A program made the translations under genes and the position numbers. From contig JAGLZA010000102.1 of NCBI GenBank assembly GCA_023131835.1, forward strand, positions 616-64,615: a stretch of 64,000 nt of DNA, in the 5' to 3' direction. Position 1 is the stretch's first letter. Every line of letters starts with the position of its first letter. This stretch comes from a candidate division WOR-3 bacterium. GTDB taxonomy: Bacteria; Hydrothermota; UBA3072. Positions 1 to 60,060 of this stretch are shown here, piece after piece. The notes beneath the pieces were generated by a model that was not told where the DNA came from, searched no databases, and saw only the letters and a program-made list of their open reading frames with translations.

Positions 1-1067
1 GGTTCTTCAGCACGGATGAAACCTATACATCCACGCAAATGCCCATGCTTTTTCAAGGTTACAAATACCCCTGATTTTCTCTTCAGTTTTTCTGATTCAA
101 CACTGAATTCCGGAATCTTCTTATTCTTCAGATATTCATTTATTGTTTCCCGTACAATATTAAGAAGGGTTTCTTTCTCGTTATCTGAAAGTTCATAAAC
201 ACCCTCTTCTTCCCTCTTCCCCACCTTTTTATCATTTGTAGTTACAAAAGCCCATGTTCCATAACCCACTATATAGCCACTTCTTTGCCCTGTTATATCA
301 CCAGAATTCGTTCTGTGGAGAAACAAAGCTTTGTTGGCACCAAGTTTTTTTGCAGCAAGCATCATAGTAGCAATGGCCGACGCTCCACAGGCAGCACACT
401 CTCCTTCACTTCTTTTTTGACAATCATATTCCAATAATCCTTCACAGTCCAAATCCTTGATATAATCATTTACTCTATCCGTCACCCTTTTTGTTTCATC
501 ATAATTGTAACCGTGATAGAGATCAGACGAAGCTATTATCACCCAATCATCCCTATCCATCAATTCCGTATAGAGGGCATCGGAAAGGACTCTGCACTTA
601 TTTATATTATCCGTGCTCAACACGATTGGCACAATCTTGAAGTCTTTTAAAACCACCTGGAGAAAAGGAATCTCCACTTCAAGCGAATGTTCTCTTGTGT
701 GTCCCTCGGGAAAATAATCTATAAGGTCACTATGTTTTTTTAGATTGGATGTAAACTCTTCGGCAATTTCAACTTCACCAAGTGGTGTTTTCCAAAAACC
801 TTTATCATAGACAGAGAAACCCTGGATATAAGCATGATGAGAAGGCCCTAGCAGAATCACAAGATTGATATCTTTACCCTCTAAAGCCTTAAAGGCATAA
901 GCGGCTGTCCCGCCAGAGAATGGATAACCCGCATGTGGAACTATGAAGCCTAAAACCCTTTCGTCGATATTCACCCTGGCATTCTCTAAATATTGGTCTA
1001 TCATAGAACGTAACTTCTCAGGTTCCGCAGGATAAAAACTTCCAGCAACAACTGGCTCTCTTTTCAT
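1..1067 (-). CDS. Fused MEMO1-like (AmmeMemoRadiSam system protein B) + AMMECR1-domain protein; the 3' end runs off the window
   Basis: Reverse-strand translation gives MKREPVVAGSFYP...PHAGY (MEMO signature), followed by an AMMECR1-like GVFVTL..HGHLRGCIG motif near the window edge. A GGGAGGAG Shine-Dalgarno sits 6 nt upstream of the ATG at 1067. An alternative upstream ATG at 1139 would add a lipoprotein-like leader MKRIRLVTLIVLIVFSVCC. Confidence 0.7.
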   Translation of the reverse strand, partial: MKREPVVAGSFYPAEPEKLRSMIDQYLENARVNIDERVLGFIVPHAGYPFSGGTAAYAFKALEGKDINLVILLGPSHHAYIQGFSVYDKGFWKTPLGEVEIAEEFTSNLKKHSDLIDYFPEGHTREHSLEVEIPFLQVVLKDFKIVPIVLSTDNINKCRVLSDALYTELMDRDDWVIIASSDLYHGYNYDETKRVTDRVNDYIKDLDCEGLLEYDCQKRSEGECAACGASAIATMMLAAKKLGANKALFLHRTNSGDITGQRSGYIVGYGTWAFVTTNDKKVGKREEEGVYELSDNEKETLLNIVRETINEYLKNKKIPEFSVESEKLKRKSGVFVTLKKHGHLRGCIGFIRAEE

Positions 1068-1157
1068 TTCTCCTCCCTGTTTACAACAAACAGAAAAAAC
1101 AATCAGGACAATAAGTGTAACCAACCTTATTCGCTTCATATTATTTCACCAAATATA

Positions 1158-1247
1158 CGGAGAGGCAGGGATTCGAACCCTGGGAGGAGCGGGTAGCCCC
1201 TCAACCGATTAGCAATCGGTTGCCTTCGACCGCTCGGCCACCTCTCC
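1158..1247 (-). tRNA. tRNA-Ser (anticodon GCT), class II with long variable arm
   Basis: Reverse complement reads GGAGAGGTGGCCGAGCGGT...anticodon loop TTGCTAA...GGTTCGAATCCC...CCTCTCC with a 7-bp acceptor stem. Confidence 0.8.
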
Positions 1248-1249
1248 AA

Positions 1250-1332
1250 CGGAGGGTGAGGGATTCGAACCCCCAAGGGCTCATCGCCCGGCGGATTTCA
1301 AATCCGCTGCCTTACCGTTAGACTAACCCTCC
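1250..1332 (-). tRNA. tRNA-Ser (anticodon TGA), long variable arm
   Basis: Reverse complement reads GGAGGGTTAGTC...anticodon stem-loop GCGGA-TTTGAAA-TCCGC...GGGCGATGAGCCC variable arm...GGTTCGAATCCCTCACCCTCC. Confidence 0.7.
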
Positions 1333-1379
1333 GGCATTAAGATATTACTATGCTCCATCTAAATGTCAAGTCCCACACC

Positions 1380-2110
1380 ATCCCAATTATTAACCGCAGA
1401 TGAACGCAGATAAACGCAGAACCCACCCACCCCTTAAATTTGTAATTCGAGAGAAGAAAAGCATACGACCCTGCTGCCACTCCAGATAATTGTAGGAACG
1501 ACTTACACCAGTCGCGATAATGGAGTAGAGGCAATTCATGAATTGCCTCTACAAGTTTCGCGCAAGGGGAAATCGCAAAAGTAGGGGCGTTCAATTGAAC
1601 GCCCCTACAAAACAAAATTCTCTTTGCGGGCTTTATATTCCTTTGCGAACTTTGCGAGAAATCTTAAATCAATTCAATCAGTGGAAATCTGTGTCAAGAA
1701 AAAGGGTTTGGGTTCTGGGTGGGATTTTCGACTGATGACTCTTGGGCAACAGCCCCTCTTGACTCAGGCTCTATTTCAATCAGTGAGAATTAGAGCCTAA
1801 ATAGGATTTAGGGGTTGGGGATTGGGTTTTAGTTTTGCACGAATAAATTCGTGGCTACAACTTTTAGGTAACAAAAGATTTTTTCTTAAACCGTGCAGAA
1901 ACCGTGGCTAAAAAGGGGATGGTGGGGGACTTTCGACTGATGACTCTTGACTCACGACTCTATCTAAATCAGTGTGAATCTGTGGCAAAAAAAGGTTGGA
2001 GGGTCGTGTGTTCTTCTCTGAATCACAAAAAATTAAGGGGTGGTGAGGGGCTTTGTGTTCTCTGTGTACTCTGTGGTGAATATTCTTGGGAGAGGTAGGG
2101 TATTTTGCAC
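1380..2110. repeat. Composite intergenic repeat block (locus A): CGCAGATRAACGCAG motif, GTAGG-anchored REP-like hairpins, G-rich telomere-like heptads, ~100-bp periodic AATCAGTG.GAAT units, CTCTGTGGTTAAAAA motif
   Basis: Several modules recur at 11265-11545, 21120-21447, 32600-32670, 50690-50790, 59340-60060 and 63190-63345. There is no credible ORF; the six-frame ORFs here are short and overlap the repeats. Confidence 0.8.
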
Positions 2111-2180
2111 TTTGCAATCTTCATTTTACAATTATTTATACCCCCTTGACACTTTGCCTATATTTTGATAGTTTACTTTC

Positions 2181-2420
2181 ATGGAATTCGAAAAGAAACT
2201 TCAACGACTTGAGGAGATTGTTGAAAAAATGGAGAAAGGTGAACTCCCTTTAGATAAAACACTTAAATTCTTTGAAGAAGGGATGAAACTCCTCGACGAA
2301 TTGAAGAAATACCTCTCCAAAGCAGAAATCAGGATACAGGGATTGATTAAAGAGGGAGGAGAAAAATTAAAAACAGATGAATATAGAGAGTTATCTGGCG
2401 AATTGGAAGAACAGGATTGA
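2181..2420 (+). CDS. xseB: Exodeoxyribonuclease VII small subunit
   Basis: 79 aa, MEFEKKLQRLEEIVEKMEKGELPLDKTLKFFEEGMKLL is typical of XseB. Classical xseB-ispA-dxs synteny. TTGACA-17-TAGTTT promoter-like hexamers at 2146-2174 end about 7 nt before the ATG, so the transcript may be leaderless. Confidence 0.85.
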   Translation: MEFEKKLQRLEEIVEKMEKGELPLDKTLKFFEEGMKLLDELKKYLSKAEIRIQGLIKEGGEKLKTDEYRELSGELEEQD

Positions 2421-3252
2421 TGAGAAGTTAGACGAATATCTTCCTTCTCCAGAAACCTATCCGGAGACCCTGAGCAGGGCAATGCGATATACTGTGCTTG
2501 CCGGCGGTAAGAGGATCAGGCCCATCCTTCTTATCACAACATATCAACTCTGCGGAGGGAAGAATGTAGATGAAATCTTTCCTGTTGCCTGTGCGCTCGA
2601 ATTCATCCATTCATATTCACTCATCCATGATGATCTTCCATCCATTGATAATGATGACTACAGAAGGGGGCTCCTTAGTTCTCACAAGAAATTCGGAGAG
2701 GATATAGCAATACTTGCAGGTGATGCCCTCTTTTCCCATGCTTTCTATACCATAGCAGAATCATATATTGCCCCTAAAAAGAAGGATGAGATTCTAAAAA
2801 CACTTACTTTTGCCATAGGTAATAAAGGCATCATTGGAGGACAGATTAAGGATGTTGAGACAGATCCAACCAAAAGAAATCCAAAACTGCTTAGATATAT
2901 TCACTCCCATAAGACAGCCATTTTCTTCTCCGCAGCTTGTGAAATGGGTGGTATATTGGCAGAAGTAGATTCTAATATAATTACTCATCTCAGGAAGGGA
3001 GGACTCTTTATGGGAATGGCTTTCCAGATTATAGACGATGTTATCGATGTGGAAGGGGTTATGGAAGAGGCAGGAAAAGACATAAATTCTGATGAGAACA
3101 AATTGACTTATCCTTCAATATATGGAGTAGGGCATTCCAAGGAAATAGCTAAAAGATACACCCAGATTTCAATGAAGCATTTAAAAAATATAAACAATGA
3201 AAGTGATCTCCTTGAGGGAATCATTCTTTTCCTATTAAGAAGGATGAAGTAA
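2377..3252 (+). CDS. ispA: Polyprenyl (farnesyl/geranylgeranyl) diphosphate synthase
   Basis: Two Asp-rich motifs, LIHDDLPSIDNDDYRRG and FQIIDDVID. Overlaps the xseB 3' end by 44 nt. Confidence 0.85.
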   Translation: MNIESYLANWKNRIDEKLDEYLPSPETYPETLSRAMRYTVLAGGKRIRPILLITTYQLCGGKNVDEIFPVACALEFIHSYSLIHDDLPSIDNDDYRRGLLSSHKKFGEDIAILAGDALFSHAFYTIAESYIAPKKKDEILKTLTFAIGNKGIIGGQIKDVETDPTKRNPKLLRYIHSHKTAIFFSAACEMGGILAEVDSNIITHLRKGGLFMGMAFQIIDDVIDVEGVMEEAGKDINSDENKLTYPSIYGVGHSKEIAKRYTQISMKHLKNINNESDLLEGIILFLLRRMK

Positions 3253-3253
3253 A

Positions 3254-3691
3254 ATGGGATGGAAGGAATGGAACCTTATACTGATTCCTTACTTCAGTGG
3301 AATGTCATGTCAGGTGATAAAATTCATAATTTTTTGTATAAAAGAAAGGAAAATAAATTTTCATCGATTGGTTGAAATGGGTGGAATGCCCAGTGCGCAT
3401 TCCGCATCCACCGTAACGCTTACAACCTTGATGGCTCTATACAAAGGTATGGATTCTCCTTTCTTTGTGATTACCCTTTTTGTTTCTATATTTATAATGG
3501 GTGAAGCTGCAGGAGTAAGGAGGGCTACTGGCATACAGGCATTAGTGCTCAACCAGTTAGTAGAAGAATTTTCCAAGCATAGAAGAATCTCCGTCAATAA
3601 GATAAAAGTCCTTATAGGACACACTCCTGTTGAGGTTATATTAGGATCGATCTATGGTTTCTTCTTCGCGTTTGCTTTCCCAGGAGGATAA
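3254..3691 (+). CDS. Divergent PAP2/DUF212 family membrane protein
   Basis: GGMPSAHSA motif and multiple transmembrane segments. Confidence 0.6.
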   Translation: MGWKEWNLILIPYFSGMSCQVIKFIIFCIKERKINFHRLVEMGGMPSAHSASTVTLTTLMALYKGMDSPFFVITLFVSIFIMGEAAGVRRATGIQALVLNQLVEEFSKHRRISVNKIKVLIGHTPVEVILGSIYGFFFAFAFPGG

Positions 3692-5554
3692 ATGATACTG
3701 AAAAAAATAAAATCACCAGAGGATATTGATAGACTTTCCTTTAAAGAATTATCTATATTGGCCTCCGAAATGAGGAATAGAATAATTGAGGTTGCCTCGA
3801 AGCGCGGAGGACATGTCGCTCCAAGTTTAGGAGTGGTAGAACTAACAATTGCACTCCTTAAGGTATTCAAACCTCCGGTTGATAAAATTATCTGGGATGT
3901 ATCGCATCAATCTTATGGATATAAATTGTTAACAGGAAGGAATGATAGTTTTGATACGCTCCGACAGTTTGGTGGGATAAGTGGTTTCCTCTCACGTTCG
4001 GAGAGCATATATGATGCCTTCGGAGCAGGGCATGCAAGCACCTCACTTTCAGCAGCCATTGGGTTTGCCATAGCAAGGGATTTAAGAGGGGATGATTATG
4101 ATGTAATAGCTGTCATTGGTGATGGTGCCCTTACCGGAGGAATGGCTATGGAGGGATTGAATCAGATAGGCTATCATAATAATAATATCCTTGTAATCCT
4201 GAATGACAACAAGATGTCTATCGCAGAGAATGTAGGAGGAATGCGCGAATATCTTACCCGTTTACAATCAGCTGAGATCTATAATAAGATTATGGAAGAT
4301 GCGTGGGACCTTTTAGAAAAACTCCCGAAGGGTCTCAGCACAAAGGCAAAGAATTCTGCCAGAAAATTGAGCGAAGGGCTCAAGAATCTCATCGTTCCAA
4401 ATATCATCTTTGAAGAATTTGGTCTTTCCTATTATGGACCAATAGATGGACATAATATCCCTGAACTGATAACCCTTCTTTCGAAGATAAAAAAGATAAA
4501 AGGGGCTAAACTCCTTCATATTATAACAGAAAAGGGAAGGGGATACAAGCCAGCAGAGGAAGAACCAACCCTATTCCATGGGCTCGGGCCATTTGACCCA
4601 GAAAGTGGAAAACCAATTAAGAAAAAAGGACAAAAAAACTATTCGGATATTTTCGGAGAAATCATCGTAGAGGAAGCCAGAGAAAACGAAGATATTATTG
4701 CAATAACTGCTGCTATGCCAAACGGAACAGGTCTTGTCAATTTCTCAAAGGAGTTCCCAAATCGGTTTTATGATGTTGGTATAGCTGAGCAGCACGCTGT
4801 AACCTTTGCAGGAGGTCTTGCAGCAGGGGGTATGCGTCCGGTATGTGCAATCTATTCCACCTTTCTCCAGAGGGCTTTCGATCAGATAATACATGATATA
4901 GCACTCCAGAGGTTACCAGTTATATTCTGTATTGATCGGGGTGGACTCGTAGGAGAGGATGGTGCAACCCATCACGGTGCATTTGACTTAAGCTACCTTA
5001 GAATGATTCCAAATATGGTCATTATGACTCCAAGGGATGAATTGGAATTCAAAAGGATGTTTAAAACAGCCCTTGATTATGAAGATGGGCCTATTGCTAT
5101 AAGATATCCCAGGGGGCAAGTAGAAGGAGTAGAATCTCTGGATAGGATTACCTCTATCCCCATTGGAAAAGGAGAGATGCTACACAAAGGAGATAACCCT
5201 CTTGTTCTTGTTGTTGGTCCATTGGTCTACAGGGTTCTTAAAATAGCAAAGGAATCTGATGATATCAATCCAACCATTATAGATGCAAGATTCATAAAAC
5301 CCCTTGATGAGGAGCTCATACTAAAACTTGCAAGGAAAAGCGATAAGATAATAACAGTGGAAGATAATGCGATTGCAGGTGGATTCGGAAGTGCGGTAAT
5401 GGAACTCTTAAGCGATAATGGATTAAAAAGGGATATCTTCAGGATTGGTATACCTGATCGTTTTATAACTTATGGTAATCAATTGAGATTACACGAATCA
5501 ATAGGAATGGGAGAAGAGACGCTTAAGGAACGGATGAAGGAGTTTACCAAATGA
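3692..5554 (+). CDS. dxs: 1-deoxy-D-xylulose-5-phosphate synthase
   Basis: 620 aa, with the TPP-binding GDGALTGGMAMEGLN and a transketolase-like C-terminus. Follows ispA in the classical arrangement. Confidence 0.9.
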   Translation: MILKKIKSPEDIDRLSFKELSILASEMRNRIIEVASKRGGHVAPSLGVVELTIALLKVFKPPVDKIIWDVSHQSYGYKLLTGRNDSFDTLRQFGGISGFLSRSESIYDAFGAGHASTSLSAAIGFAIARDLRGDDYDVIAVIGDGALTGGMAMEGLNQIGYHNNNILVILNDNKMSIAENVGGMREYLTRLQSAEIYNKIMEDAWDLLEKLPKGLSTKAKNSARKLSEGLKNLIVPNIIFEEFGLSYYGPIDGHNIPELITLLSKIKKIKGAKLLHIITEKGRGYKPAEEEPTLFHGLGPFDPESGKPIKKKGQKNYSDIFGEIIVEEARENEDIIAITAAMPNGTGLVNFSKEFPNRFYDVGIAEQHAVTFAGGLAAGGMRPVCAIYSTFLQRAFDQIIHDIALQRLPVIFCIDRGGLVGEDGATHHGAFDLSYLRMIPNMVIMTPRDELEFKRMFKTALDYEDGPIAIRYPRGQVEGVESLDRITSIPIGKGEMLHKGDNPLVLVVGPLVYRVLKIAKESDDINPTIIDARFIKPLDEELILKLARKSDKIITVEDNAIAGGFGSAVMELLSDNGLKRDIFRIGIPDRFITYGNQLRLHESIGMGEETLKERMKEFTK

Positions 5555-6357
5555 ATGAACGCACATTAAAAGAAAGACTAAAATTTTCAGGTATTGGTGT
5601 TCATACTGGTATGTCTTCTACAATCCTCCTGCATCCTGAGGAAGAAGGAGGAATAAGGTTCTTAAAGGACGGAACTGTTATACCCGCAACCATTGACTCG
5701 GTAGTGGAAACAGAGAGAGGAGTCGTTCTATCCCGAGATGAAAAGCAGATCGCTACAGTAGAACATCTCCTTTCCGCTCTATATGGTTGTAAGATTGATC
5801 ACCTTACAATAGAGGTGATAGGTAAAGAGATACCTGCAATGGATGGGAGTGCATATCCTTTTGTCAAGGCAATGGAGGAGATTGGTTTTTCTTCCCTTGA
5901 TAGAAAAAAGAGAAAAACAAAACTTCAAAAGACTTATACAATAGAAGAGAAAGGTTGCTTTGCTTATGCCAGACCGTCTGAGGAACTTGAGATTCACTAT
6001 ATTATTTCATACGACCATCCCTTACTTTCTTATCAGGAATATTGCTATAATGGACGATCTGATTTTACCGGGGAATTAGCACCAGCAAGAACCTATGGTC
6101 TTCTATCATGGAAAGAAAAACTGAAAGCTATGGGTTATGCACTATCAGCATCCACTGATAATACACTGATTTATGATAAAGAGGGAGTTGTAAATAAGCC
6201 ACGTTTTCCAGATGAAGCAGTAAGACACAAGGTGTCCGACTTTCTTGGTGATCTTTACCTTTTGCAACCTCTCCCTGTTGGATATTATATAATTGTTCGC
6301 GGTGGTCATTATTTACATATTGAACTATTAAAAAAGATAAAAAGGAGTGAATATTGA
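5551..6357 (+). CDS. lpxC: UDP-3-O-acyl-N-acetylglucosamine deacetylase
   Basis: MNERTLKERLKFSGIGVHTGM... is an LpxC N-terminus, followed immediately by fabZ and lpxA. Confidence 0.8.
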   Translation: MNERTLKERLKFSGIGVHTGMSSTILLHPEEEGGIRFLKDGTVIPATIDSVVETERGVVLSRDEKQIATVEHLLSALYGCKIDHLTIEVIGKEIPAMDGSAYPFVKAMEEIGFSSLDRKKRKTKLQKTYTIEEKGCFAYARPSEELEIHYIISYDHPLLSYQEYCYNGRSDFTGELAPARTYGLLSWKEKLKAMGYALSASTDNTLIYDKEGVVNKPRFPDEAVRHKVSDFLGDLYLLQPLPVGYYIIVRGGHYLHIELLKKIKRSEY

Positions 6358-6797
6358 AGAATTTTAACATAGAACAGATATTGGACATTATGCCTCATCG
6401 CTATCCATTTTTATTAATAGACCGCATAGAATCTCTGGATGATAATGAGGTTGTTGGGATAAAGAATGTTACCTATAATGAACCATTCTTTATGGGACAT
6501 TTCCCGGGTGAGCCTATAATGCCTGGGGTTCTGATTGTTGAATCTATGGTTCAGACAGGAGGATTCCTCATTCTTAAGAAACTTGGCGATCCCAAAAAGA
6601 AGGTGGTTTATTTCAGCGCTATTAATAAAGTGAGATTCAGAAAGCCTGTCAGACCGGGTGATGTTCTAAAACACAAGGTCCAACTGACAAGTTTTAGATC
6701 TAACTTTTTTAAGTTAAAGAGTAAGTCTTTTGTCGAAGATACCCTTGTAGCTGAAGGTGAATTCACAGCCGTTGTGGCTGATAGAAAGGAAATATAA
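6354..6797 (+). CDS. fabZ: 3-hydroxyacyl-ACP dehydratase
   Basis: PHRYPFLLIDRI and FFMGHFPGEPIMPGVL hot-dog motifs. TTG start with an AAAGGAG SD. Confidence 0.85.
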   Translation: MKNFNIEQILDIMPHRYPFLLIDRIESLDDNEVVGIKNVTYNEPFFMGHFPGEPIMPGVLIVESMVQTGGFLILKKLGDPKKKVVYFSAINKVRFRKPVRPGDVLKHKVQLTSFRSNFFKLKSKSFVEDTLVAEGEFTAVVADRKEI

Positions 6798-6798
6798 G

Positions 6799-7560
6799 AT
6801 GGAGTTTGTACATCCTGAAGCCGAATTGGCTTCTGATGTCTCTATAGGAAAGGGATGCATAATAGAAAAGGATGTAAGTATCGGAAGTGGAACCAGGATT
6901 GATACAGGAGTTATCATAAAAGGCGGAGTAATAATCGGTAGAAACAACGAGATCCATCCCTATGCTGTCATCGGTGATACTCCTCAGGATATGTCATATT
7001 CTAAAGACAAAGGTGTGATTCAGATAGGGGACAATAATATAATAAGGGAATTTGTTACGATTCATGGAGCTGTTGGTAAAGATGAACGCACAATGATAGG
7101 CGATCACAACTATATAATGGCATATAGTCATATAGCACATAACTGTAAGGTTGGTAATCATGTATTACTGGTTAACGGTGCAACATTGGGTGGCCTGGTT
7201 GAGGTGCAGGACTATGCCTATATATCAGCTTTTGTTCCTGTTCATCAGTGGGTACGGATAGGAGCCTATTCTATAATAGGTGGAGGGCTCCGAATTACAA
7301 AGGACCTCGTTCCATATGCCCTCGCAGGAGGTTCGCCCCTCAGGGTAGTATCCCCTAACTTTATTGGTCTCAGAAGGAACGGATTCTCAAAAGAAAGAAT
7401 TGAGAGAATAAAAGAAGCATTTCGTATTCTCTTCCGTTCAAATCTTAATACAGGACAGGCTCTAAAAAAACTTAAAGAGGAATTCAAAGGGGATGAAGAT
7501 ATAGAGCGGATTATAACATTTATAAAGGGCTCAAGAAGAGGTATCATAAAGGGAGGCTGA
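6799..7560 (+). CDS. lpxA: Acyl-ACP--UDP-GlcNAc O-acyltransferase
   Basis: Left-handed beta-helix hexapeptide repeats. ATG at 6799 with an AAGGAAA SD immediately after the fabZ stop; the ORF-track start at 6757 is probably too long. Confidence 0.8.
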   Translation: MEFVHPEAELASDVSIGKGCIIEKDVSIGSGTRIDTGVIIKGGVIIGRNNEIHPYAVIGDTPQDMSYSKDKGVIQIGDNNIIREFVTIHGAVGKDERTMIGDHNYIMAYSHIAHNCKVGNHVLLVNGATLGGLVEVQDYAYISAFVPVHQWVRIGAYSIIGGGLRITKDLVPYALAGGSPLRVVSPNFIGLRRNGFSKERIERIKEAFRILFRSNLNTGQALKKLKEEFKGDEDIERIITFIKGSRRGIIKGG

Positions 7561-8331
7561 ATGATAAAGGATACAACTGTTTCTAAAGCTATACTAAAAA
7601 GAGGTTTTGCCGAATTGCTAAAAACAATAGACTCTGATGTAGTAATTGCAGGGGCCGGTCCCTCAGGTCTTTCTGCTTCCTATTATCTTGCAAGGGACGG
7701 AGTTAATGTTGTAATATTTGAAAGGGCATTGAAGGTCGGTGGTGGAATGCCTGGTGGCGGTATTGGATTCCCTGTTATAGTTATTCAGGAAGATGGGTTG
7801 GAGATCATAAATGAGTTTGGGATATCATACGAGGAATTTGAAAAAGGATACTATACAGCAAACTCTATAGAATGCACGGCAAAATTGGTAGCAGGAGCAA
7901 TTGATAACCATGTTAGAATAATCAATCTTACCACTGTTGAAGATATAATGGTGAAGGAGGGCAAAACTAATGGGGTAGTAATCAACAGGACGGCTATCGA
8001 ACTTGCAAAACTGCATGTGGATCCAATAAGCGTCCGTGCACGATTTACAATCGATGCAACCGGACATGCTACCGAGTTGGCAAAAACCCTTCTAAAGAGA
8101 AAGGGGATAAGACTTACTACTCCCTCCGGAGGAATTGAGGGCGAAGGACCTATGTGGGCAGAAAGGGGAGAGAAGGATATCCTTTTAAATACAAAGGAGA
8201 TATTCCCAAACCTTTATGTTACAGGTATGGCAGCCAATGCGGTATTTGGTTCGCCGAGGATGGGTCCCATATTTGGTGGTATGCTTCTTTCAGGAAAAAA
8301 GGTTGCGGAGCTGATAAAAGAAAGGTTATGA
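7561..8331 (+). CDS. thi4: Thi4-family thiazole synthase-like flavoprotein
   Basis: VVIAGAGPSGLSASYYLARDGVNVVIFERALKVGGGMPGGG is typical of Thi4/THI1. Confidence 0.7.
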   Translation: MIKDTTVSKAILKRGFAELLKTIDSDVVIAGAGPSGLSASYYLARDGVNVVIFERALKVGGGMPGGGIGFPVIVIQEDGLEIINEFGISYEEFEKGYYTANSIECTAKLVAGAIDNHVRIINLTTVEDIMVKEGKTNGVVINRTAIELAKLHVDPISVRARFTIDATGHATELAKTLLKRKGIRLTTPSGGIEGEGPMWAERGEKDILLNTKEIFPNLYVTGMAANAVFGSPRMGPIFGGMLLSGKKVAELIKERL

Positions 8332-8966
8332 ATTTTCTGAACTCCAGAATAGATCATACGATACTTTCACCCGATGCTACAGAAGATGACATAGAGAGGG
8401 TATGTAAGGAGGCCATAGAATATAGATTTCGGAGCGTCTGCATAAATCCAATATGGGTTGAATTTGCCGCACACCTATTAGAGGGAACAGAAGTGAAATT
8501 GGTCTCTGTGGGTGATTTTCCTTTAGGCTCCTCCTTCACAGAGATCAGAAAGCAGGAAGCAAGGATTGCCATAGAAAAAGGAGCTTCAGAGATAGATATT
8601 GTTCTGAATCTTGGATTGTTTAAGAGTGGTAGATTTGAAGAAGTAAAGAATGACCTTTCCGAGGTTGTACAAGTGGTCCATCCTGACGGATACCTGAAGG
8701 TAATAATAGAGGCTCCGATTCTATCCGATGAAGAGATAAAAAGAGCCTCGAAATTAGTAGAGGAAGCAGGTGCTGACTTTCTTAAAACCGGAACAGGAAC
8801 AAGAGGTCCGGTCACTATTCATCAGGTTAACCTGATAAAAGAAACTATCTCCCTGCCTATAAAGGCTGCAGGTGGAATACGAGATAGAGAAGGGGCATTA
8901 TCATTGATAAAAGCAGGCGCGAAGGTTCTGGGTAGTTCCTCGGGAATCCGGATAGTTCAAGGATAA
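8328..8966 (+). CDS. deoC: Deoxyribose-phosphate aldolase
   Basis: TILSPDATEDDIERVCKEA...FRSVCINP and the Schiff-base region LKAAGGIR. ATG at 8328 overlaps the thi4 stop; the ORF-track start at 8154 is an overlap artefact. Confidence 0.8.
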   Translation: MNFLNSRIDHTILSPDATEDDIERVCKEAIEYRFRSVCINPIWVEFAAHLLEGTEVKLVSVGDFPLGSSFTEIRKQEARIAIEKGASEIDIVLNLGLFKSGRFEEVKNDLSEVVQVVHPDGYLKVIIEAPILSDEEIKRASKLVEEAGADFLKTGTGTRGPVTIHQVNLIKETISLPIKAAGGIRDREGALSLIKAGAKVLGSSSGIRIVQG

Positions 8967-11173
8967 TGAATAAAAAGAAATTTCATCAATCCGAAAATAT
9001 CAAAGCTATAGTAATCCTATTCTTGTTGAATATCATCTATTTTCTCCCCATAATTATGAAGAAGGGATATCTATGGGAGGACTTTCTCTATCAAAATTAT
9101 CCCTATAGATTGTTTGCCGCTGTTAACCTGCGTAATGGGATATTCCCTTTCTGGAATCCCTATGTCTTCGGAGGAATACCTTTCTTTGCCGATGTCCAGG
9201 CATCTATCCTCTATCCTTTTAATCTGTTATTATCCCTATTTGTGAGAAATAATTTTCTTTCCTATTATGTAGTTCAGTTTCTTCCAATATTCCATATATT
9301 CCTTGCCGGGGTTTTTATGTTCTTGCTGCTTAAGAATCTGAAACTTAAATGGGAATCTTCCCTGATAGGTGCAATTATCTATATGTTCAATTTTAGATTT
9401 ATTTTACATCTTACTCACTTGAATCGAATCTTGACATTTGCCTGGTTCCCTTTAATTTTTCTCCTCTATAAAAAGGGATTAGATAATCTTGACTTGAAAT
9501 TTATTATAGGTGCCGGATTAACTATTGGAATTGTTGCTTTTGCAGGTTATCCTCAGGCACTTATAATAGAAATGCTTATCCTGTTCTACTATTTTATCTA
9601 CCGTTTAGTTATAGATAGAAAACAATGGAAGAGGATAATGCTTTTGAGTTTACTGGTAATGGGTATTGGAATAGGTATTGCTGCGTTCCAATACCTCCCC
9701 ACCGCCCATCTTATAAATTCCTCTATCAGGGCAGATTATACATACGAGCAGATTGTTCTGGATTCATACAACCCCGGAAGGTTCTTAACCTTTCTTGTAC
9801 CCAACCTATTCGGAACTGCAGCTCGCGGAATCATCAGTTATTTTGGCCCAGGACATTCATATTTCTTCTGGGAACAGACAACATACATTGGTATATTTGC
9901 TCTGTTCTTTGCTTTCCTCTCCTATCACAGAGAGAGGAAGAGTTTCTGGATATTTCTATTGATTTCAGCATTGTTTTCATTATCTATTTCAATGGGTAGA
10001 TATTTCTTTACCCACAGAATCCTCTATTTCAGCATCCCAATCTTCAAAATGATGAGAACTCCTCCCATACATATGAACTCTTTGGTATTTTTAGCGACAA
10101 TAATGGCTGCTCTGGGATTCGATCGGTTTCTTTTGAGAGAAAAACAGATCAAGAATAAATTCTTGATTGGAATTGTTGTTTTCAGTATTATATTAGCACT
10201 GATTCTTTATCAATATATCCCTTCTGAAATTCAGAAATCAGCAAGGGTGATTGTATCCAATTGCATATGGAGATTTTTATTACTTGTAGTAGCATTTGCT
10301 GTTATCGTCGGTTTATACACTCGAAAAAAAACGAATAGATGGCAGTTTGCCTTGCTTATCGGCATCGGAATATTTATTGATTTGTTCTTTACCGGAGCAT
10401 TCTATAATGCAAGTAGGGTTTCTCCTCATAGATTCTGGGCTAAAAGCAAATTTGTTAGTTATATCCAGGCTTCTCAGGAGAGCGAATTAACGAGGTTGGC
10501 GCAGAGGACGCCTGAAGGACATTTATTGCTTCCTCGAAATGTAGGTTCAGTGTTCAGAATTTTTGCTACAGACGGTTATAACCCAATGCAATTAAAAAGA
10601 TATGTCCACATACGCAGGGACCTCCGTCCCCTCAATCTAAATAATTGGTATCGTATTGATAATGTCCGATACGCAACATATCTTGATAAGAATAATTTAG
10701 GTGTTAGAGAGATAAAGAATTGTTTGCCAAGAGCGAAGCTATTCTTTGACTTTACTATAATAAAAGATGCAGATGAAGCAATAAGGATAATAGCCACCGA
10801 GGAATTCGACCCTGATAAAACAGTAATACTCGAAGAGTCTCCAAAAATACCCATTTCATATCCGGGAGAGGGAAGATTATCAATAGATAAATATACGCCC
10901 AATAGAATAGAGATATCTGTTGAAAGTAGAGATAATGCTATACTTTTCCTCTCGGAAAATTATTATGATAGATGGATAGCTACTATCGATGGTGAAAGGA
11001 CAGAGATTACTCCCTGCAATGTGACATTCAGAGCTATTTCTGTCCCTAAGGGCAAGCATAAGATTGTCTTTCAGTATAAGGAAATACTCTTCTATCCCCT
11101 CCTTGGAATTTCATTATCTTTAATATTAATCAGTTTCTTCCTCGTTATCTATCTACATAGAAAACAAAAATAA
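8966..11173 (+). CDS. YfhO-family polytopic membrane protein (GT-C-like glycosyltransferase)
   Basis: 735 aa with many transmembrane segments; the N-terminal YPYRLFAAVNLRNGIFPFWNPYVFGGIPFFAD resembles the YfhO family. Confidence 0.6.
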   Translation: MNKKKFHQSENIKAIVILFLLNIIYFLPIIMKKGYLWEDFLYQNYPYRLFAAVNLRNGIFPFWNPYVFGGIPFFADVQASILYPFNLLLSLFVRNNFLSYYVVQFLPIFHIFLAGVFMFLLLKNLKLKWESSLIGAIIYMFNFRFILHLTHLNRILTFAWFPLIFLLYKKGLDNLDLKFIIGAGLTIGIVAFAGYPQALIIEMLILFYYFIYRLVIDRKQWKRIMLLSLLVMGIGIGIAAFQYLPTAHLINSSIRADYTYEQIVLDSYNPGRFLTFLVPNLFGTAARGIISYFGPGHSYFFWEQTTYIGIFALFFAFLSYHRERKSFWIFLLISALFSLSISMGRYFFTHRILYFSIPIFKMMRTPPIHMNSLVFLATIMAALGFDRFLLREKQIKNKFLIGIVVFSIILALILYQYIPSEIQKSARVIVSNCIWRFLLLVVAFAVIVGLYTRKKTNRWQFALLIGIGIFIDLFFTGAFYNASRVSPHRFWAKSKFVSYIQASQESELTRLAQRTPEGHLLLPRNVGSVFRIFATDGYNPMQLKRYVHIRRDLRPLNLNNWYRIDNVRYATYLDKNNLGVREIKNCLPRAKLFFDFTIIKDADEAIRIIATEEFDPDKTVILEESPKIPISYPGEGRLSIDKYTPNRIEISVESRDNAILFLSENYYDRWIATIDGERTEITPCNVTFRAISVPKGKHKIVFQYKEILFYPLLGISLSLILISFFLVIYLHRKQK

Positions 11174-11200
11174 TCTCTTGTCTTTTCTAAACACCCAATC

Positions 11201-11236
11201 GTAGAGACGAGGCAATGCCTCGTCTCTACATTTTTC
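11201..11236 (+). terminator. Rho-independent terminator of the xseB-yfhO operon
   Basis: GTAGAGACGAGG-caat-GCCTCGTCTCTAC hairpin followed by ATTTTT. Confidence 0.75.
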
Positions 11237-11264
11237 ATCACAAATAAATTTGTGTCTTATTAAA

Positions 11265-11545
11265 GGGCATGCCTACAATCTGTAGGGGCGTGATTTATCA
11301 CGCCCATTTTGTTTCGGGTTCGATAAATCGAACCCCTACTCTTAAACCGTGCAGTAACCGTAGCATATATTAGGGGTTGGGATTTAGGGATTAGGATTTT
11401 GGGTTTAGAAAATTAGAATTAATTAAACTCTCTTCTGTGCTCATCTGCGTTAATCTGCGTTCATCCGCGGTTAAAAAAGGTGGGTGGTGATGGGAATTCC
11501 AATTTAACCATTCAACCATTTAACTATTTCTCAATTGGAGCGAAG
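11265..11545. repeat. Composite intergenic repeat (locus B): REP-like GTAGGGGC hairpins, AAACCGTGCAG motif, G-rich heptads, and a core that is inverted-identical to 59420-59560
   Basis: 11395-11530 is about 90% identical to the reverse complement of 59420-59560, including GCGTTAATCTGCGTTCATCCGCGGTTAAAAAAGGTGGGTGG. Confidence 0.85.
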
Positions 11546-11606
11546 CGACAATTCCTTTACGCCCTTGCTTGAAAAATGGGGAACCAGGCAGAAGATGTTT
11601 TTTTTC

Positions 11607-11634
11607 TTGACAAGTGATAAATCAACACTACAAT
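11607..11634 (+). promoter_or_regulatory. Sigma70-type promoter for the EBP gene
   Basis: TTGACA-16 nt-TACAAT. Confidence 0.55.
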
Positions 11635-11819
11635 AATAATATAATAAAAGAGGGAAAGGTACAGATTATCGTGAAGGTAAGAGTGTATGGGTTATTTGAT
11701 GTTTTTCGGAAATCTAAATACAAACACGAGAATCTCATGGGTGATAAGGAAGGTTGATGTGAAAAATAAATTTAACGAGAACAGATATTTATTACTAAAA
11801 TCACGTTTGTGGGGTAATT

Positions 11820-14800
11820 TTGGCAAAACAAGAGAAATCTAAGATAAATACTTCTCCTGGCAAATCTACATATACCCGGCCAAAGCTATTTGTGGGGAGG
11901 GAGAAGGAATTAACCCTTTTAAAGGAAGAATTCAATAAATTAGGTGAAGACCCACATAAACCAATTATAATAATTTCAGGTGAAGCGGGTATTGGCAAGA
12001 CCCGTTTATTAAAAAAGGTTAGAACTATATTAAAAAACTCAGTCTTTATAAAGGTAGAGTGTCAAAAAGAGGAAAAAGAACCCTATGCCTGTTGCAACAA
12101 AGTTGCCGACTCATTGATTAATCTCATTGAAAAGAACTATAAGGAATTTTTAAAAGTCTATGGAGATATACTTGTCACCCTGTCACCAAAGTTAAAGAGT
12201 AAAAGATACCTAAGGAAGATTAAACCCCTAAAGGAGATAGAGAAATACTATATCTTTGAAAAATTCCTGCAGTTTATTATAAATTTGCCAATAGAGAAAA
12301 ATATTGTGATAGCCCTGGAGGATTCTCAATATCTTAGCAAGGAATCAATTGAATTTCTTAAATATTTGACACTCGGGATGCCAGTTACATCAAATATAAT
12401 TTTCATTGTAACCTACAGAGAGGAAGAAAAACCTGATGACCTTATTGAGTTTGAAAAGGCAATAGAAGGTCACCTTATCAAGATTCTGCTTGAGAGATTA
12501 AATATTCAATCTACAAGGAAGTTTATAACTTCTATGATAGGAGAAATAGAAGAAAATGAACTTGAATATATTTCAGATAAAATATTTAAAAAGACCGCAG
12601 GCGTTCCACTCTTTATAGAACACTTTGTGAGACTATTGATAGAGGAAAAAGCCTTAAAAAAAGAAGAAGATACCTGGGTAATAAACAAAGATAGATTATC
12701 CGGAATAGAGTTAACCGGAACAACCCTGCAAATAATTCAGGAGAAACTAAAGAGGGTTCCCAATAAAAAGTTAATGAGAGTGATTCAATATGCATCTATT
12801 ATGGGTGGTGAATACATTAATAGTTTAATCTTGAATGAAATTATGGATAAAGATATTCAGGAGGAACTTGAGACATTAAACAACCAATGGATTTTGAGAA
12901 AAGAGAGCATAGAGGGGAATGAGAGATTCAAATTTGCTCATCCTATGATAAAAGAGATTGCATATCAAATGATACCCGAGGAGAAGAAAAAGGAATTACA
13001 TAAGAAGGTTGGACTTGTATTAGAGAAACATTTCCCGGAAGAAAAAGCGATGCTCGCATATCACTTTTCACTTGCCGGGGTCAAAAATAAAGCATACAAG
13101 TATTCACTTAAGGCAGCAGAGAATGCAGAGGGGAATTTTGCTTATCTGGACACAATACCACTCTATGAAACTGCCTTGAGATTCACACCTAATGAAACAA
13201 AGTCCACAGAAATAAAGATCAAATTAGCTGCATTATGTAGCATTAGCAGTAACTTTGAAAAAGGCGTAAAGTATTTAAATGAGGTAATTTCGCAAAAAAT
13301 ACGAGGAAAAATAAAAGTAAAGGCAATGGTAGAATTAATGAGGATTAAAATACTGCAGGGTAAAATTAACGAAGCCTATAAAATTGGGGAAAGCACTTTG
13401 AATTTAACCGCTAAAGGAACTTCCAAAGCAAAAGCTGAAATTTATACAATACTTGGACAAATATTTGCTCTCAAGGGTAAATGCGGTAAAGCAAAGGATT
13501 ATCTGATGCAATCTTTACCAATAGGAGACAAATTAGGGGATAAGGAACTCCAGGCAGAAACAAGAAATGTGATGGGAGCAATTTATTGGTTTATGGGTGA
13601 AAACAATATGGCAGTTAAAAGTTTTAAAGAAGCATTGAAATTTGCAAAGAATAAGAATACCATAGCTAAAATATGTTCAAACTTAGGGACTACATGTGAT
13701 GAAATGAACAATTCCAAAGAAGCAGAATTTTATTTTGAAAGGACAATAGAGATTAATAAAAAAATCGGGAATATGAGGGATTTAGGAGTAGCATATAATA
13801 ATTTTGGATTGAAACTTCAGGGACTGGGAAGAATAAATGATGCACTGAAGTATTATAAGATAGCTTTAGAATATACAAAAAGAATAGGATATAAAGCATT
13901 ACTTCCTCTGGTATATATCAATATAGGAAGAGTATACGCTATGTTTAATAATGCAACCATGGCAATAGAGTATTGCAATAAGTCCCTCAAGTTATTAGAT
14001 GATGAGCAAAGTGAAATTTGGATAATTTACAACGTTTACGAAATCGCCGGGGACATACATCTCTATTTAGAGGATTTTAGCGCCTCGATCCAATACTATA
14101 AAAAGTCAATGGAATTAGTAAAGAAATTAAATAATAATGAAAAATTGAACAGAACCCTTATTCAATTATCAGACATATACGCTGATAAAGGTAATCTTGA
14201 TAAGGCCAAAGACTTGTTGCTAAAAGTAGAAAAATACGCAAAAGATAAAAAAAATACAAAACTACTTGGGTTATGTCATAGGGTAAGAGCAAAGATTATA
14301 CAAAATAATTCACCACAGGATGCGATGAGGTATTTAGAAGACAGTCTGGAGGCATTTAATACCCCTCGATCAGGAACAGAGAAGGCGCTGAGCCTTTACG
14401 AAATGGGTAAATTATATCTAAAAATGAATAAATACCAGGACGCACTCGATGTGTTTTTAGAGACCAAGGAGATTCTACAGAAAAGAGAAGAGCTTTACTG
14501 GCTTAAAAAGGTGCAAAACTCAATTAAAGAGGTTGGAAAATTACTCTCTATCCTACCAAAACGGGTAAGTCTGGAGGCTAGTGTATTAACTTCTATAGTA
14601 AAATTTGCGAGTAGAAAGATCCCCTTGGATAGATTTATCAAGGAAGTGCTTACATTTGTAAAAAGTACCCTGCAGATAAATCAAACCGCTGTAATCATCT
14701 TTGCAGATGGAAAGATGCAAAAGGTTTATTCAAATGAAGAAATAAACGGAGAAACACAACAAGATATTGCAAGAATAAGTAAATCAGTCTACCAGAGGAA

Positions 14801-15974: not shown

Positions 15975-16090
15975 TACTCCTTCTTAACTCACCTTAAAAA
16001 TTAGTTATTCCTTCAATCCACAACAAAATTTCCAAAAGTGTTACATTTTCGGGATTCAAAAAACCAGTAATACCAATGCCTTCCGAATTG

Positions 16091-16107
16091 TGTTCAACTT
16101 TTGAACA
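16091..16107. promoter_or_regulatory. Perfect palindrome TGTTCAA-N3-TTGAACA, candidate enhancer (UAS) for EBP paralog 1
   Basis: Lies about 190 bp upstream of the sigma54 promoter at 16293, and a half-site TTGAACA repeats about 60 bp downstream. Confidence 0.35.
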
Positions 16108-16292
16108 TTTTTTGGTAGATGGGTTTTTTGTAATTCATTGAACATCAAGAAGATATCACTGGAACGAAATTTGTTTTAGAAATTAATGGAGGTACAAATG
16201 CAGGTTGAGCAGAAGGCGAAAACTAATGAAGTGAGTGAAAGTAGAGAGCGGTTCTATTATGGGTTCAATTCAAAAAAAGGAGGTCATCAAAC

Positions 16293-16310
16293 CTGGCTAA
16301 AATTATGCAC
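16293..16310 (+). promoter_or_regulatory. Sigma54 (-24/-12) promoter
   Basis: cTGGCtaaaattaTGCAc matches TGGC-N8-TGCA with the GG and GC elements 10 nt apart. Sits about 105 nt upstream of the T9SS cargo gene start and directly downstream of the EBP gene. Confidence 0.6.
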
Positions 16311-16415
16311 TCCTTTGCCCCTTGGGAGCAAAGAGATGAAAAAGGGGTACTATTCAGTTTTTTGGAAAGGATAAATATGTCGGGAAAAGTCAAAAACCAT
16401 AATAAAGGGGGAAAG

Positions 16416-18566: not shown

Positions 18567-18584
18567 ACACAACCTCCAGACAAT

Positions 18585-18614
18585 AAAAGGGAGGGATGCC
18601 CCTCCCTTTTATTT
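18585..18614. terminator. Bidirectional rho-independent terminator between convergent genes
   Basis: AAAA-GGGAGGG-atgc-CCCTCCC-TTTT. Confidence 0.7.
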
Positions 18615-20874: not shown

Positions 20875-21062
20875 ATGGCTACCGAGGTAGCCAAAATCAT
20901 AAAATCTCCCTCCCCTCGGAGTTTTTTAGATAGCAGGTCTCCTGACTTATGACCAACCTACTCATCGCGCCTTCCCATCAATTTGACAGTGGCTATATGC
21001 GACTTTCGCTGTCAAATACAGTAGCGGGGCTGCAACGGATTCTCACCGTTTTCCCTTAACTA
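20875..21062 (-). promoter_or_regulatory. Cobalamin (B12) riboswitch
   Basis: Minus-strand reading shows GGTGAGAATCCGTTGCAGCCCCGCTACTGT...GCCACTG...B12 box AGTCAGGAGACCTGCT, followed by a GGCTACCTCGGTAGCC hairpin next to the start codon. Confidence 0.75.
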
Positions 21063-21119
21063 TCTACTATGTTAAATAATAAATAATGTTTTTTTTGAGA
21101 TTGTCAAGGGGGATAGCAA

Positions 21120-21447
21120 TTCCCTACTCCCCATTTTTAACCACAGAGAACACAGAGCCCCACCTCTCCCCTTTATTTTTTATGTTTTCAGAGGAAGAAA
21201 GGGAGAAAGATCTAGTCAGGGATATCCCTCTTACATTGTAGGAGGGACTTCTTGAGTCCCGACTATCACGGAGTAGCAAGACTTGTCTTGCGCTCTTGTT
21301 GTAGGGGTCGGGTTCCCTGACCCTTGTAGGAGCGACTTCCCAGTCGCGACCTTCCTGAAGTAGGGGCAATTCATGAATTGCCTCTACAAGTCTCGCGCAA
21401 GGGGAAATCGCAGAAGTGGGGGCGTTCGATTGAACGCCCCTACCTCT
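21120..21447. repeat. Intergenic repeat block (locus C): CTCTGTGGTTAAAAATGGGG motif plus six GTAGG-anchored hairpins
   Basis: 21330-21440 is near-identical to 59710-59830 and 1491-1610. Confidence 0.8.
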
Positions 21448-32368: not shown

Positions 32369-32486
32369 ATATACCCCCTCCAACTGATTTTAATAATAAT
32401 ATCTGTTCTCGATAAGTTTCTTTTCCATATTGAGCTTCAAATTCTTTAGGCCTCATATATCTCAAATTACTATATATATACAATTT

Positions 32487-32599: not shown

Positions 32600-32670
32600 A
32601 AAATGTAGGGGCAAGACATGTCTTGCCATTTTTGTAGGAACGGTTTCCAAACCGCGATTTTCCGATATCC
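32600..32670. repeat. REP-like hairpins (locus D): TGTAGGGGCAAGACATGTCTTGCC and TGTAGGAACGGTTTCCAAACCG
   Basis: Same GTAGG-anchored hairpin family as the other loci; sits where the Rex coding sequence breaks off. Confidence 0.7.
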
Positions 32671-45196: not shown

Positions 45197-45210
45197 CTTA
45201 TCCTCCTGAA

Positions 45211-46900: not shown

Positions 46901-46904
46901 TAAT

Positions 46905-50368: not shown

Positions 50369-50619
50369 TGGGATTGGATGTGGAAATTCCTCGGGATAGA
50401 AAAGACGAATTTCGCTCTCTTCTTTTACACGGAAGAAAATGGGAAAGGAGTGATGAAGGATACAAGAGACTACTTTTATCTCTTGTGGAAAGCGGATATT
50501 CTAAAAAAAGAGTAAGGGAGGTTCTAAGAAAATTAGGTCTTTCCTACAACAAGGAGAAGATGGAGAGGATAAAAGAGGAATTTCTCCGTGAAGTAAAGGA
50601 ATCAAACAAAGAGAGATAG
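50353..50619 (+). other. Small ORF (88 aa) of unknown function, possibly another IS-related fragment
   Basis: Basic, Lys/Arg/Glu-rich; overlaps the transposase remnant on the opposite strand. Confidence 0.2.
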
Positions 50620-52481: not shown

Positions 52482-52482
52482 C

Positions 52483-59339: not shown

Positions 59340-60060
59340 AGAAGCAATCGTAATGTCAAGATTATTTCTCACTAAATCCCCCTTTTTTTAACCGCAGATA
59401 AACGCAAAGGACACAGAGGAAAAGTAGTTAAATAGTTGAATGGTTGAATAGTTAAATTGGAACTCCCATCACTACCCACCTTTTTTAACCGCGGATGAAC
59501 GCAGATAAACGCAGATGAACACAGAAGAGAGTTTAATTAATTCTAATTTTCTAAACCCGAAATCCTAAACCCGAAATCCTAAACCCTAAATCCTAAAATA
59601 CTCTTGAACCCTTATCACATATCACATATAACCCTACGAACTCCACGAACCCTATGAACTCCACAAACTCAATAAACCCCATTTTTAGCCACGGTTTCTT
59701 CACGGTTTTTGTAGGAGCGACTTCCCTATCGCGACCTTCCTGAAGTAGGGGCAATTCATGAATTGCCTCTACAAGTCTCGCGCAAGGGGAAAACGCAAAA
59801 GTAGGGGCGTTCGATTGAACGCCCCTACCAAATTCCCTTTTTCTCTTTCATCCTCTGGAAACATAAAAAATAAAGGGAAGTGGTGGGACTCTGCGTCCTC
59901 TTTCGTTCTCTGCGGTTAAAAATGGGGGGTGATGGTGGGTTCTTCCTCTCGAATTACAAATTAAAGGGGAGCGGTTGGGTTCTTTAGTTCTCTGTGCCCT
60001 CTGTGGTTAAAAAATTGGGGAGGTAGGGAGAAAAAGTTCCAGGGTTGTAAATATCGCAGG
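59340..60060. repeat. Composite intergenic repeat (locus E) upstream of the mvh-hdr operon
   Basis: 59420-59560 is an inverted copy of 11395-11530. (CCTAAAYCCGAAAT)n C-rich heptads at 59548-59600. 59710-59830 is near-identical to 21330-21440. Two CTCTG[CT]GGTTAAAAA copies at 59900-60030. Confidence 0.85.

Follow-up and report, generated by a model that had tools for sequence, protein, structure and literature searches.

GTAG-footed hairpins at seven intergenic loci of a WOR-3 bacterium, probably REPs of the kind that accompanies subclass-2.4 RAYTs

A stretch of 64,000 nucleotides from contig JAGLZA010000102.1 of a candidate division WOR-3 bacterium (here the window, meaning the whole of the DNA analysed) carries, at seven intergenic loci, about 25 GC-rich hairpins that have a GTAG(G) foot on their 5' side, and the question that it raises is what these hairpins are and how they came to be there. 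A preliminary description, made from the letters alone, had read them as repetitive extragenic palindromes (REPs) bearing the GTAG hallmark of elements processed by REP-associated tyrosine transposases (RAYTs), in a region that holds no RAYT gene. The hairpins are present at every one of the seven loci, and both their REP anatomy and their match to published forms agree with that description. It is likely, at roughly four chances in five, that they are GTAG-superfamily REPs in the 'long canonical' and 'double foot' forms of RAYT/TnpA-REP subclass 2.4 (group 4).

The foot alone is uninformative, as the bare GTAGG pentamer is not enriched in the window (91 observed vs. 80 ± 9 expected), and the signal appears when GT[AG]G is combined with an immediate hairpin (36 observed vs. 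10.7 ± 3.2, with a maximum of 18 in any of 100 dinucleotide shuffles). A scan for perfect hairpins recovers stems of 7–13 bp with loops of 2–4 nt and a GC-rich stem base, most of which begin with GTAG(G/A) or have it just before them. Under a strict definition (a GTAG foot and a stem of at least 50% GC) there are 17 units, and 15 of these fall within the 11% of the window that is intergenic, a bias with a binomial p of ~6e-13 that has to be read with the clustering of the units in mind. In a gap-free alignment of twelve 28-nt units, the GTAG and the GGGC/GCCC stem base are conserved (G1, T2, and G4 never vary, and A3 is conserved to at least 90%), while five distal stem positions vary with complementarity kept. 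Some stems contain G.T pairs. Paired bases fill 97% of the cells and eight of the nine pairs include compensatory changes; none of 500 shuffles reached the observed pairing, and slid partners fell far below it as well. Because the aligned units had been selected as hairpins, the covariation describes their pattern of variation and is not new proof of the structure.

Two forms are known for the REPs of subclass 2.4, 'canonical long' with three basal G-C pairs and 'double foot' with GT[AG]G...C[TC]AC (Quentin et al. 2018, PMC6006769), and both occur here. The long canonical form, a GT[AG]G foot followed by three consecutive basal G-C pairs, is seen as GTAG-GGGC...GCCC in the units at 11282, 32605, 63219, 63280, and others, and the double-foot form, 5' GT[AG]G and 3' C[TC]AC in one hairpin, in the units at 1525, 1581, 11201, 21360, 59745, 59801, and 63253. 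Unit sizes are 24–29 nt, and units stand alone or in arrays that reach six hairpins. Several sub-types recur in the window: type A (core GCAATTCATGAATTGC), type B (GCGTTCRATTGAACGC), and type C (AGCGACTTCCCAGTCGC) with three copies each, type D (GCGTGATTTATCACGC) with two copies, at 11282 and 63280, and type E (GCAAGAYATRTCTTGC) with two to three copies.

A 121-nt block, of which the window holds three copies, is made up of types C, A, and B, with 28 nt of spacer separating A from B; all three copies have sharp ends (TTGTAGG...CCCCTAC) and unrelated flanks. Whole multi-hairpin blocks have been copied in one piece to distant sites. These blocks had been called almost identical and the products of recent copying. 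The near-identity holds for 21324–21444 and 59709–59829 (96%, 5 of 121 positions different) and fails for 1489–1609, which is 74% identical to the reference copy in an ungapped comparison and differs by small indels, and 'recent' can be kept only in a relative sense, with even the closest pair five positions apart and no REP indel among strains that are 99.2–99.9% identical. Within this genome type A also provides an example of compensation, where copies 2 and 3 have GGGGC/GCCTC, which includes a G.T pair, and copy 1 has GAGGC/GCCTC, with an A-T pair instead. An Rfam scan of the window returned a cobalamin riboswitch and two tRNAs and no match at the hairpins.

A block with ends reading GTAGG...CCTAC that is copied as a unit might suggest the fragments or ends of some other mobile element, such as a miniature inverted-repeat transposable element with terminal inverted repeats or the ends of an IS200/IS605 insertion sequence, which also have subterminal hairpins (PMC6006769). 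Such an origin is very improbable: no transposase, tnpB, or target-site duplication lies beside any copy, the units are only 24–29 nt long and occur singly as well as arrayed, and the block folds into separate small hairpins and not into one long one. The distribution of the parts likewise speaks against it, for the block junction is absent from the reference-genome and Joint Genome Institute (JGI) metagenome collections (0 matches to a block-specific 28-mer) and hairpin A is everywhere. Folded as single-stranded DNA, the whole of cluster 3 likewise forms a row of separate small hairpins with no single long one (z = -6.2), and for this reason the REPIN model, in which two inverted REPs form one long hairpin, does not fit these head-to-tail arrays. 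Readings as a CRISPR (clustered regularly interspaced short palindromic repeats) array or as integron attC sites were also considered and rejected, as the units are unlike one another and irregularly spaced and have neither cas nor integrase genes nearby.

The tie to RAYT genes comes from the commonest unit, type A, with the sequence GTAGGGGCAATTCATGAATTGCC(C/T)CTAC, which has letter-for-letter copies in the genomes of more than 15 phyla. When viral contigs are searched with the generic pattern GTAGGGGC-N12-GCCCCTAC, the commonest 28-mer listed is type A with CCCC, in contigs that span 37–60% GC. For the exact 23-mer of type A there are at least 120 matching stretches in species-representative genomes, among them Nostoc, Chamaesiphon, Pseudanabaena, Geobacter, Patescibacteria, Nitrospirae, Omnitrophota, Ignavibacteria, Aminicenantes, Brocadiaceae, Zixibacteria, Chloroflexi, Planctomycetota, Terriglobia, Coxiellaceae, Spirochaetota, and Gracilimonas, and for the variant seen in the window, where CCT replaces CCC, there are at least 120 in JGI metagenomes. 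The change from CCC to CCT is synonymous (proline) in the RAYT reading frame. The other sub-types behave differently, in that ~2.8 Mb of fetched loci yielded none of types B, F, G, H, and I, viral contigs yielded no type B either and had type D twice, and a C+A pair at 88% identity occurs in one metagenome contig (L373, 40% GC). On the whole, type A is universal and the other sub-types are lineage-specific.

Five of the 120 genome loci listed have a RAYT-like gene at the type A hairpin, and seven of the 120 metagenome loci listed have a RAYT gene or pseudogene at the T-variant hairpin. The five genes were found as weak matches to an Escherichia coli RayT probe among the open reading frames (ORFs) of those loci, and their products form one family with 41–47% mutual identity. 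All five match Pfam Y1_Tnp; the best NCBIfam model is REP_Tyr_transpos, the REP-associated tyrosine transposase (E 1e-17 to 2e-19, with one tabulated member scoring 64 bits, under the equivalog cut-off of 80); and the best solved structure is that of TnpA-REP, PDB 4ER8. Their NHxH, WQRNYYEH, and YIxNNP motifs fit those of TnpAY1 subclass 2.4, which equals the group 4 RAYTs of Bertels and for which a HuH motif NH[IFV]H, the further motifs WQ and YIxNNP, and a median length of 194 aa are described (PMC6006769). Three of the five genes contain the hairpin, which reads VGAIHELPL right after the HUH motif, and the others have it at the gene edge; in one (L138) it is the centre of a 66-nt perfect palindrome at the 5' edge of the gene. 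REPs in frame within the gene, between HuH and Y, are unique to subclass 2.4 (PMC6006769). For type A, then, the same REP flanks or is in frame within subclass-2.4 tnpA-REP genes of other organisms.

This RAYT-like family has at least 8000 homologs, many labelled 'REP element-mobilizing transposase RayT', and an exhaustive search gave 27,238 representatives at 50% identity. Because the first list of homologs favoured the VGAIHELPL word, the search was repeated with an insert-free member as the query; among its top 150 representatives, 17–20 carry AIHE[LS]P, and most of the others carry 'VGA...AP(T/L)' peptides, in-frame readings of other GTAGGGGC...GCCCCTAC hairpins. Many subclass-2.4 RAYT proteins (P0012, P0034, P0078, P0098, and others) have tandem expansions of the hairpin peptide, IHELPIHELPIHELP..., with up to ~10 repeats between the HUH and Tyr motifs, so that the in-gene hairpin region behaves as an expanding microsatellite with its reading frame intact. 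One RAYT sub-clade of other organisms (L376, L377, and L378) has an SPL radical-SAM gene upstream in three of three cases and a short-chain dehydrogenase downstream in two of three, a synteny that looks like that of a domesticated gene inherited vertically and not of a hopping element.

The spread of type A also bears on a more conservative explanation, that the hairpins are home-grown terminators or RNA-stabilising stem-loops selected in place, with no mobile origin and no link to a transposase. Several clusters do lie just past stops (11201 after a gene end at 11173, 50757–50784 by a gene end at 50820, and cluster 3, 21233–21447, after the gene ending at 21483), two units are terminator-like with a T-run, and G.T pairs occur in stems. 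This explanation is nonetheless quite unlikely, since local selection cannot account for a 28-mer that many phyla share and that also lies inside RAYT genes. The units as a whole also lack the make-up of intrinsic terminators, with a T-run at only two of ~25 (11201–11229 and 11286–11305) and no excess of terminator-like sites over shuffles (18 vs. 15.2 ± 4.7 in positions 1–20000), and arrays of up to six hairpins are unnecessary for termination. Cluster 1 lies between minus-strand tRNA-Ser genes and a plus-strand gene, and the single-foot units keep their plus-strand orientation (by eye, 14 plus vs. 3 minus in the window, with three more plus past the right end) to either side of the point, at ~18.6 kb, where gene strand and GC skew switch, so unit orientation is independent of the flanking transcripts. 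A secondary role in termination for some units is compatible with the REP reading. To judge from its sequence 11201–11229 is a plausible intrinsic terminator, and a few units, this one with its T-run among them, probably double as transcription terminators or RNA-end stabilisers, whereas most units, once placed, are probably passengers.

A replication-linked cause of the plus-strand bias was rejected: the bias ignores the switch in GC skew and gene strand and, with ~8 semi-independent clusters, is not significant. At that switch, between convergent genes, sits a perfect 14-bp hairpin, AATAAAAGGGAGGG...CCCTCCCTTTTATT (18582–18613), which could be a bidirectional terminator. The cumulative skew peaks near 18–20 kb, and the change of sign may mark a replication terminus or be a mere consequence of the coding strand.

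How far the family extends can be seen from other assemblies of the same species, which place an extra cluster ~0.4–0.7 kb past the right end of the window and an extra single unit ~3.6 kb past the left end, so that units recur every 8–10 kb across ~73 kb. Within these ~73 kb the family is not confined to one spot. The preliminary description had argued that repeats restricted to this region, in a genome with no RAYT gene anywhere, would point to a local duplication; because the units recur over ~73 kb and outside the window, such a situation has so far not been encountered. In four independent short-read contigs the end falls within a REP unit or block (window positions 21340, 11227, 59722, and 1555); the break at ~59722, inside block copy 3, is that of ENA scaffold_45. 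Multi-copy repeats are expected to break contigs in this way, and the breaks hint at further copies.

It should be noted that several results weigh against the REP reading, or against the RAYT half of it. The preliminary description was right that the window has no RAYT gene, as probe searches found neither a gene nor a remnant and matched only the hairpin-encoded peptide, and none was found in 7.6 kb to the left or 1.7 kb to the right in other assemblies of the species. The E. coli RayT probe matched nothing in the window or the viral loci, a search for homologs of a low-GC RAYT whose 3' edge bears the T-variant hairpin gave no WOR-3 names among its matches, and neither homolog names nor contig look-ups tied a RAYT to this genome. 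Seven strain-level contigs of 99.2–99.9% identity show no gain or loss of a REP. Head-to-tail arrangement is dominant here and absent or rare in most GTAG families (PMC3733652), and the GTAG is base-paired in the double-foot units, in contrast to the unpaired foot of E. coli REPs. The literature search also found no demonstration of direct REP transposition by a subclass-2.4 RAYT.

Some of these observations would suit orphan REPs, that is, relics of a past RAYT invasion whose transposase was lost and whose units are now immobile and drifting. With no RAYT in the window or in ~9 kb of flanks, no REP indels among strains, block copies that stand 4–26% apart, and loss of the REPtron known in many E. 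coli strains (PMC3733652), such a history deserves consideration, and it is still judged unlikely, given that pairing remains 97% intact with compensatory changes and that two of the block copies are still 96% identical. The strain comparison gave no sign of present-day mobility. Near the REPs, strains differ only in neighbouring tandem repeats, for example in the presence or absence of the 10-nt unit at 11443–11452.

Three relatives (L379, L380, and L381), with FAD (flavin adenine dinucleotide)-binding orthologs that share 75–80% protein identity with those of the window, have no tagged GC-rich hairpin in ~40 kb, where the density in the window predicts ~11, and the L381 spacer orthologous to cluster 5 holds no hairpin. 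A REP-rich species beside relatives with no hairpins in the regions recovered fits a patchy, horizontally spread system. L381 also differs in its gene order, with a 553-aa FAD-binding gene directly before Fer4, Peripla_BP, ATP_bind_3, and Memo genes that here lie ~54 kb from the FAD-binding gene and in the opposite relative orientation. This difference in order and orientation implies an inversion between the two genomes. Its left junction is ~3.4–3.7 kb left of the window (L246:3918–4200), and both junctions hold REP units, cluster 5 in the one at ~50368–50827 and GTAAGGGCACGAGCATCGTGCCCTTAC (L246:3974–4000) in the other. A link between REPs and the inversion is only suggestive, and the third relative, L379, has yet another neighbour.

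By analogy with other TnpA-REP/REP pairs, we infer mobilisation by a resident RAYT. Each unit would fold into a hairpin in single-stranded DNA; a Y1 HUH enzyme, encoded elsewhere in the genome, would recognise the hairpin and its 5' GTAG foot and cut beside them; and the enzyme would then copy or move units, singly or several in a row, to intergenic sites elsewhere, where variant stems would arise by mutation and compensation. A more speculative extension takes the type A hairpin to be a built-in element of the subclass-2.4 RAYT, identical in more than 15 phyla as both VGAIHELPL code and enzyme substrate, and a 'master copy' that would seed free REPs after the gene arrives horizontally. This idea is doubtful. 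If true, it would imply that this WOR-3 species gained a RAYT gene after its split from the hairpin-free relatives and that the lineage-specific types B and F–I and the 121-nt block were built from a type A seed.

The literature search found no report of REPs in WOR-3, and the hairpins described here would extend GTAG-type REPs, with a putative subclass-2.4 partner, to this uncultured phylum, leaving the general understanding of REPs unchanged. There are practical consequences as well: the repeats break short-read assemblies of this organism, and REPs of this kind would yield spurious small ORFs such as those for 'VGAIHELPL...' peptides.

Table 1. Positions of the hairpin units and composite blocks in the window
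Feature	Position	Strand	Remarks
Cluster 1, composite block copy 1 (diverged)	1489..1609	+	Perfect 13-bp stems
Block copy 1, single-foot unit	1492-1517	+	GTAGGAACGACTT...AGTCGCGA
Block copy 1, double-foot type A unit	1525-1552	+	GTAGAGGCAATTCATGAATTGCCTCTAC
Block copy 1, double-foot type B unit	1581-1608	+	
Double-foot hairpin	11201..11229	+	GTAGAGACGAGGCAATGCCTCGTCTCTAC, then ATTTTT; 28 nt past the stop of a YfhO-like gene (end 11173)
Cluster 2, short weak unit	11265-11276	-	
Cluster 2, type D single-foot unit	11282-11305	+	
Cluster 2, unit	11316-11339	-	Reads GTAGGGGTTCGATTTATCGAACCC on the minus strand
Three head-to-tail single-foot units ahead of block copy 2	21238-21263, 21273-21291, 21301-21323	+	21273-21291 is GTAGCAAGACTTGTCTTGC
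Composite block copy 2	21324..21444	+	Fold -52.6 kcal/mol, z = -6.2
Block copy 2, type C unit	21326-21351	+	
Block copy 2, type A unit	21360-21387	+	G.T wobble
Block copy 2, type B unit	21416-21443		Plus strand GTGG, minus strand GTAG
Cluster 4, type E single-foot unit	32605-32627	+	Head to tail with the next unit
Cluster 4, type F unit	32634-32657	+	
Cluster 5, unit	50697-50720	+	
Cluster 5, imperfect unit	50757-50784	-	Shortly past the stop of the 553-aa FAD-binding gene (gene end 50820)
Composite block copy 3	59709..59829	+	Type C 59711-59736, type A 59745-59772, type B 59801-59828
Cluster 7, imperfect unit	63191-63214	+	
Cluster 7, type E2 unit	63219-63242	+	
Cluster 7, short double-foot unit	63253-63268	+	GTAGGCTTCTGCCTAC
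Cluster 7, type D unit	63280-63303	+	24/24 nt identical to 11282-11305
Cluster 7, type F-like unit	63321-63345	+	

The window has an overall GC content of ~40%, and its genes include LpxC-FabZ-LpxA, proteins with type IX secretion system (T9SS) sorting tails, sigma-54 activators, TonB receptors, and Hdr/Mbh-like complexes. A cyanobacterial host, which the style of the repeats had suggested, is rejected by this gene content, and NCBI lists the identical proteins under candidate division WOR-3. Beside cluster 1 lie the two tRNA-Ser genes, with anticodons GCT and TGA and zero spacer (1157–1333, minus strand). Cluster 3 is immediately upstream of the cobalamin riboswitch (20915–21079, minus strand; Rfam 103.8 bits), itself upstream of genes for an S-component of the energy-coupling factor (ECF) type and a TonB-dependent receptor. 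Larger duplications are present too. Two paralogous sigma-54 activator genes of ~1384/1385 aa (11753–15938, plus strand, and 28238–32424, minus strand), with the domain order AAA_16-TPR-Sigma54_activat-HTH_8, are 79% identical over 4.2 kb and lie inverted, ~12 kb apart; several short-read contigs break at 15136, within one of them. Two paralogous Hdr/FlpD-like operons (43538–49719 and 50820–56840) encode FAD-binding proteins of 552/553 aa, a 226-aa Fe-S protein, FlpD, and an HdrA-like protein of 654/805 aa, and parts of their DNA (repeat families D3 and D5) are ~70% identical.

The intergenic DNA is a mosaic in which several families of repeats meet. Beside REP clusters, at 1380–1420, 11409–11520, and 59378–59525, stand tandem copies of a 10-nt unit, CGCAGATRAA, which often follow TTTTAACCG. 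Runs of the same decamer occur in unrelated type A-bearing contigs, a viral-collection contig of 60% GC and a cyanobacterial metagenome-assembled genome (L110:10430–10680 and L137:1700–1770), and the decamer may be a second cross-phylum repeat that travels with REPs. TTAGGG-like 7-mer runs (GGGATTA/GGGTTTA) are found at 1796–1832, 11365–11408, and 59540–59600, and ACCGTG repeats at 1884–1908, 11340–11364, and 59680–59705; the stretches 11370–11520 and 59430–59589 are inverted copies of one composite, with ~89% identity.

Among known systems, E. coli REP/BIME (bacterial interspersed mosaic element) sequences and their TnpA-REP (RayT; PDB 4ER8) share with the units described here the Y1 HUH enzyme family, a hairpin as substrate with its 5' GTAG guide, and dispersed intergenic copies. 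They differ in being bulged, imperfect palindromes with an unpaired GTAG, arranged in inverted pairs and served by subclass 2.2, and E. coli RayT matches the subclass-2.4 proteins weakly. REPINs (Bertels and Rainey 2011, PMC3116915) are likewise short repeats thought to be mobilised by a single-copy RAYT in trans, with a replicating unit larger than one REP; a REPIN is composed of two inverted REPs in one long hairpin, whereas the block here has three hairpins in the same orientation that fold separately. The GTAG superfamily, with 24 numbered families, includes sub-families with complementary stem changes, dimers, and clusters (Di Nocera et al. 2013, PMC3733652), and for a TnpA-REP acting on perfect palindromes the GTAG is essential for cleavage, with the cut at a nearby CT (Corneloup et al. 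2021, PMC8266576). The resemblance of the WOR-3 units to this superfamily, including the cyanobacterial GTAG-12, -15, and -16, is broad: mainly intergenic palindromes of 20–40 bp with a terminal GTAG, stems of 6–13 bp, loops of 2–4 nt, sub-families, and an occurrence as singles, dimers, or clusters.

The closest counterparts are the REPs of subclass 2.4, with a patchy host range given as 'Cyanobacteria, Bacteroidetes and various phyla' (PMC6006769) and group 4 RAYTs counted in 61 species, which belong to 17 classes (Bertels et al. 2017, PMC5581495). WOR-3 is not among the named host phyla, the cognate gene was not located here, and the units stand mostly head to tail, with mixed sub-types and the lineage-specific 121-nt block of three hairpins. 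In their GT[AG]G foot, three basal G-C pairs, intergenic position, and multiple copies, and in the presence of both the long canonical and the double-foot form, they are like the REPs of that subclass.

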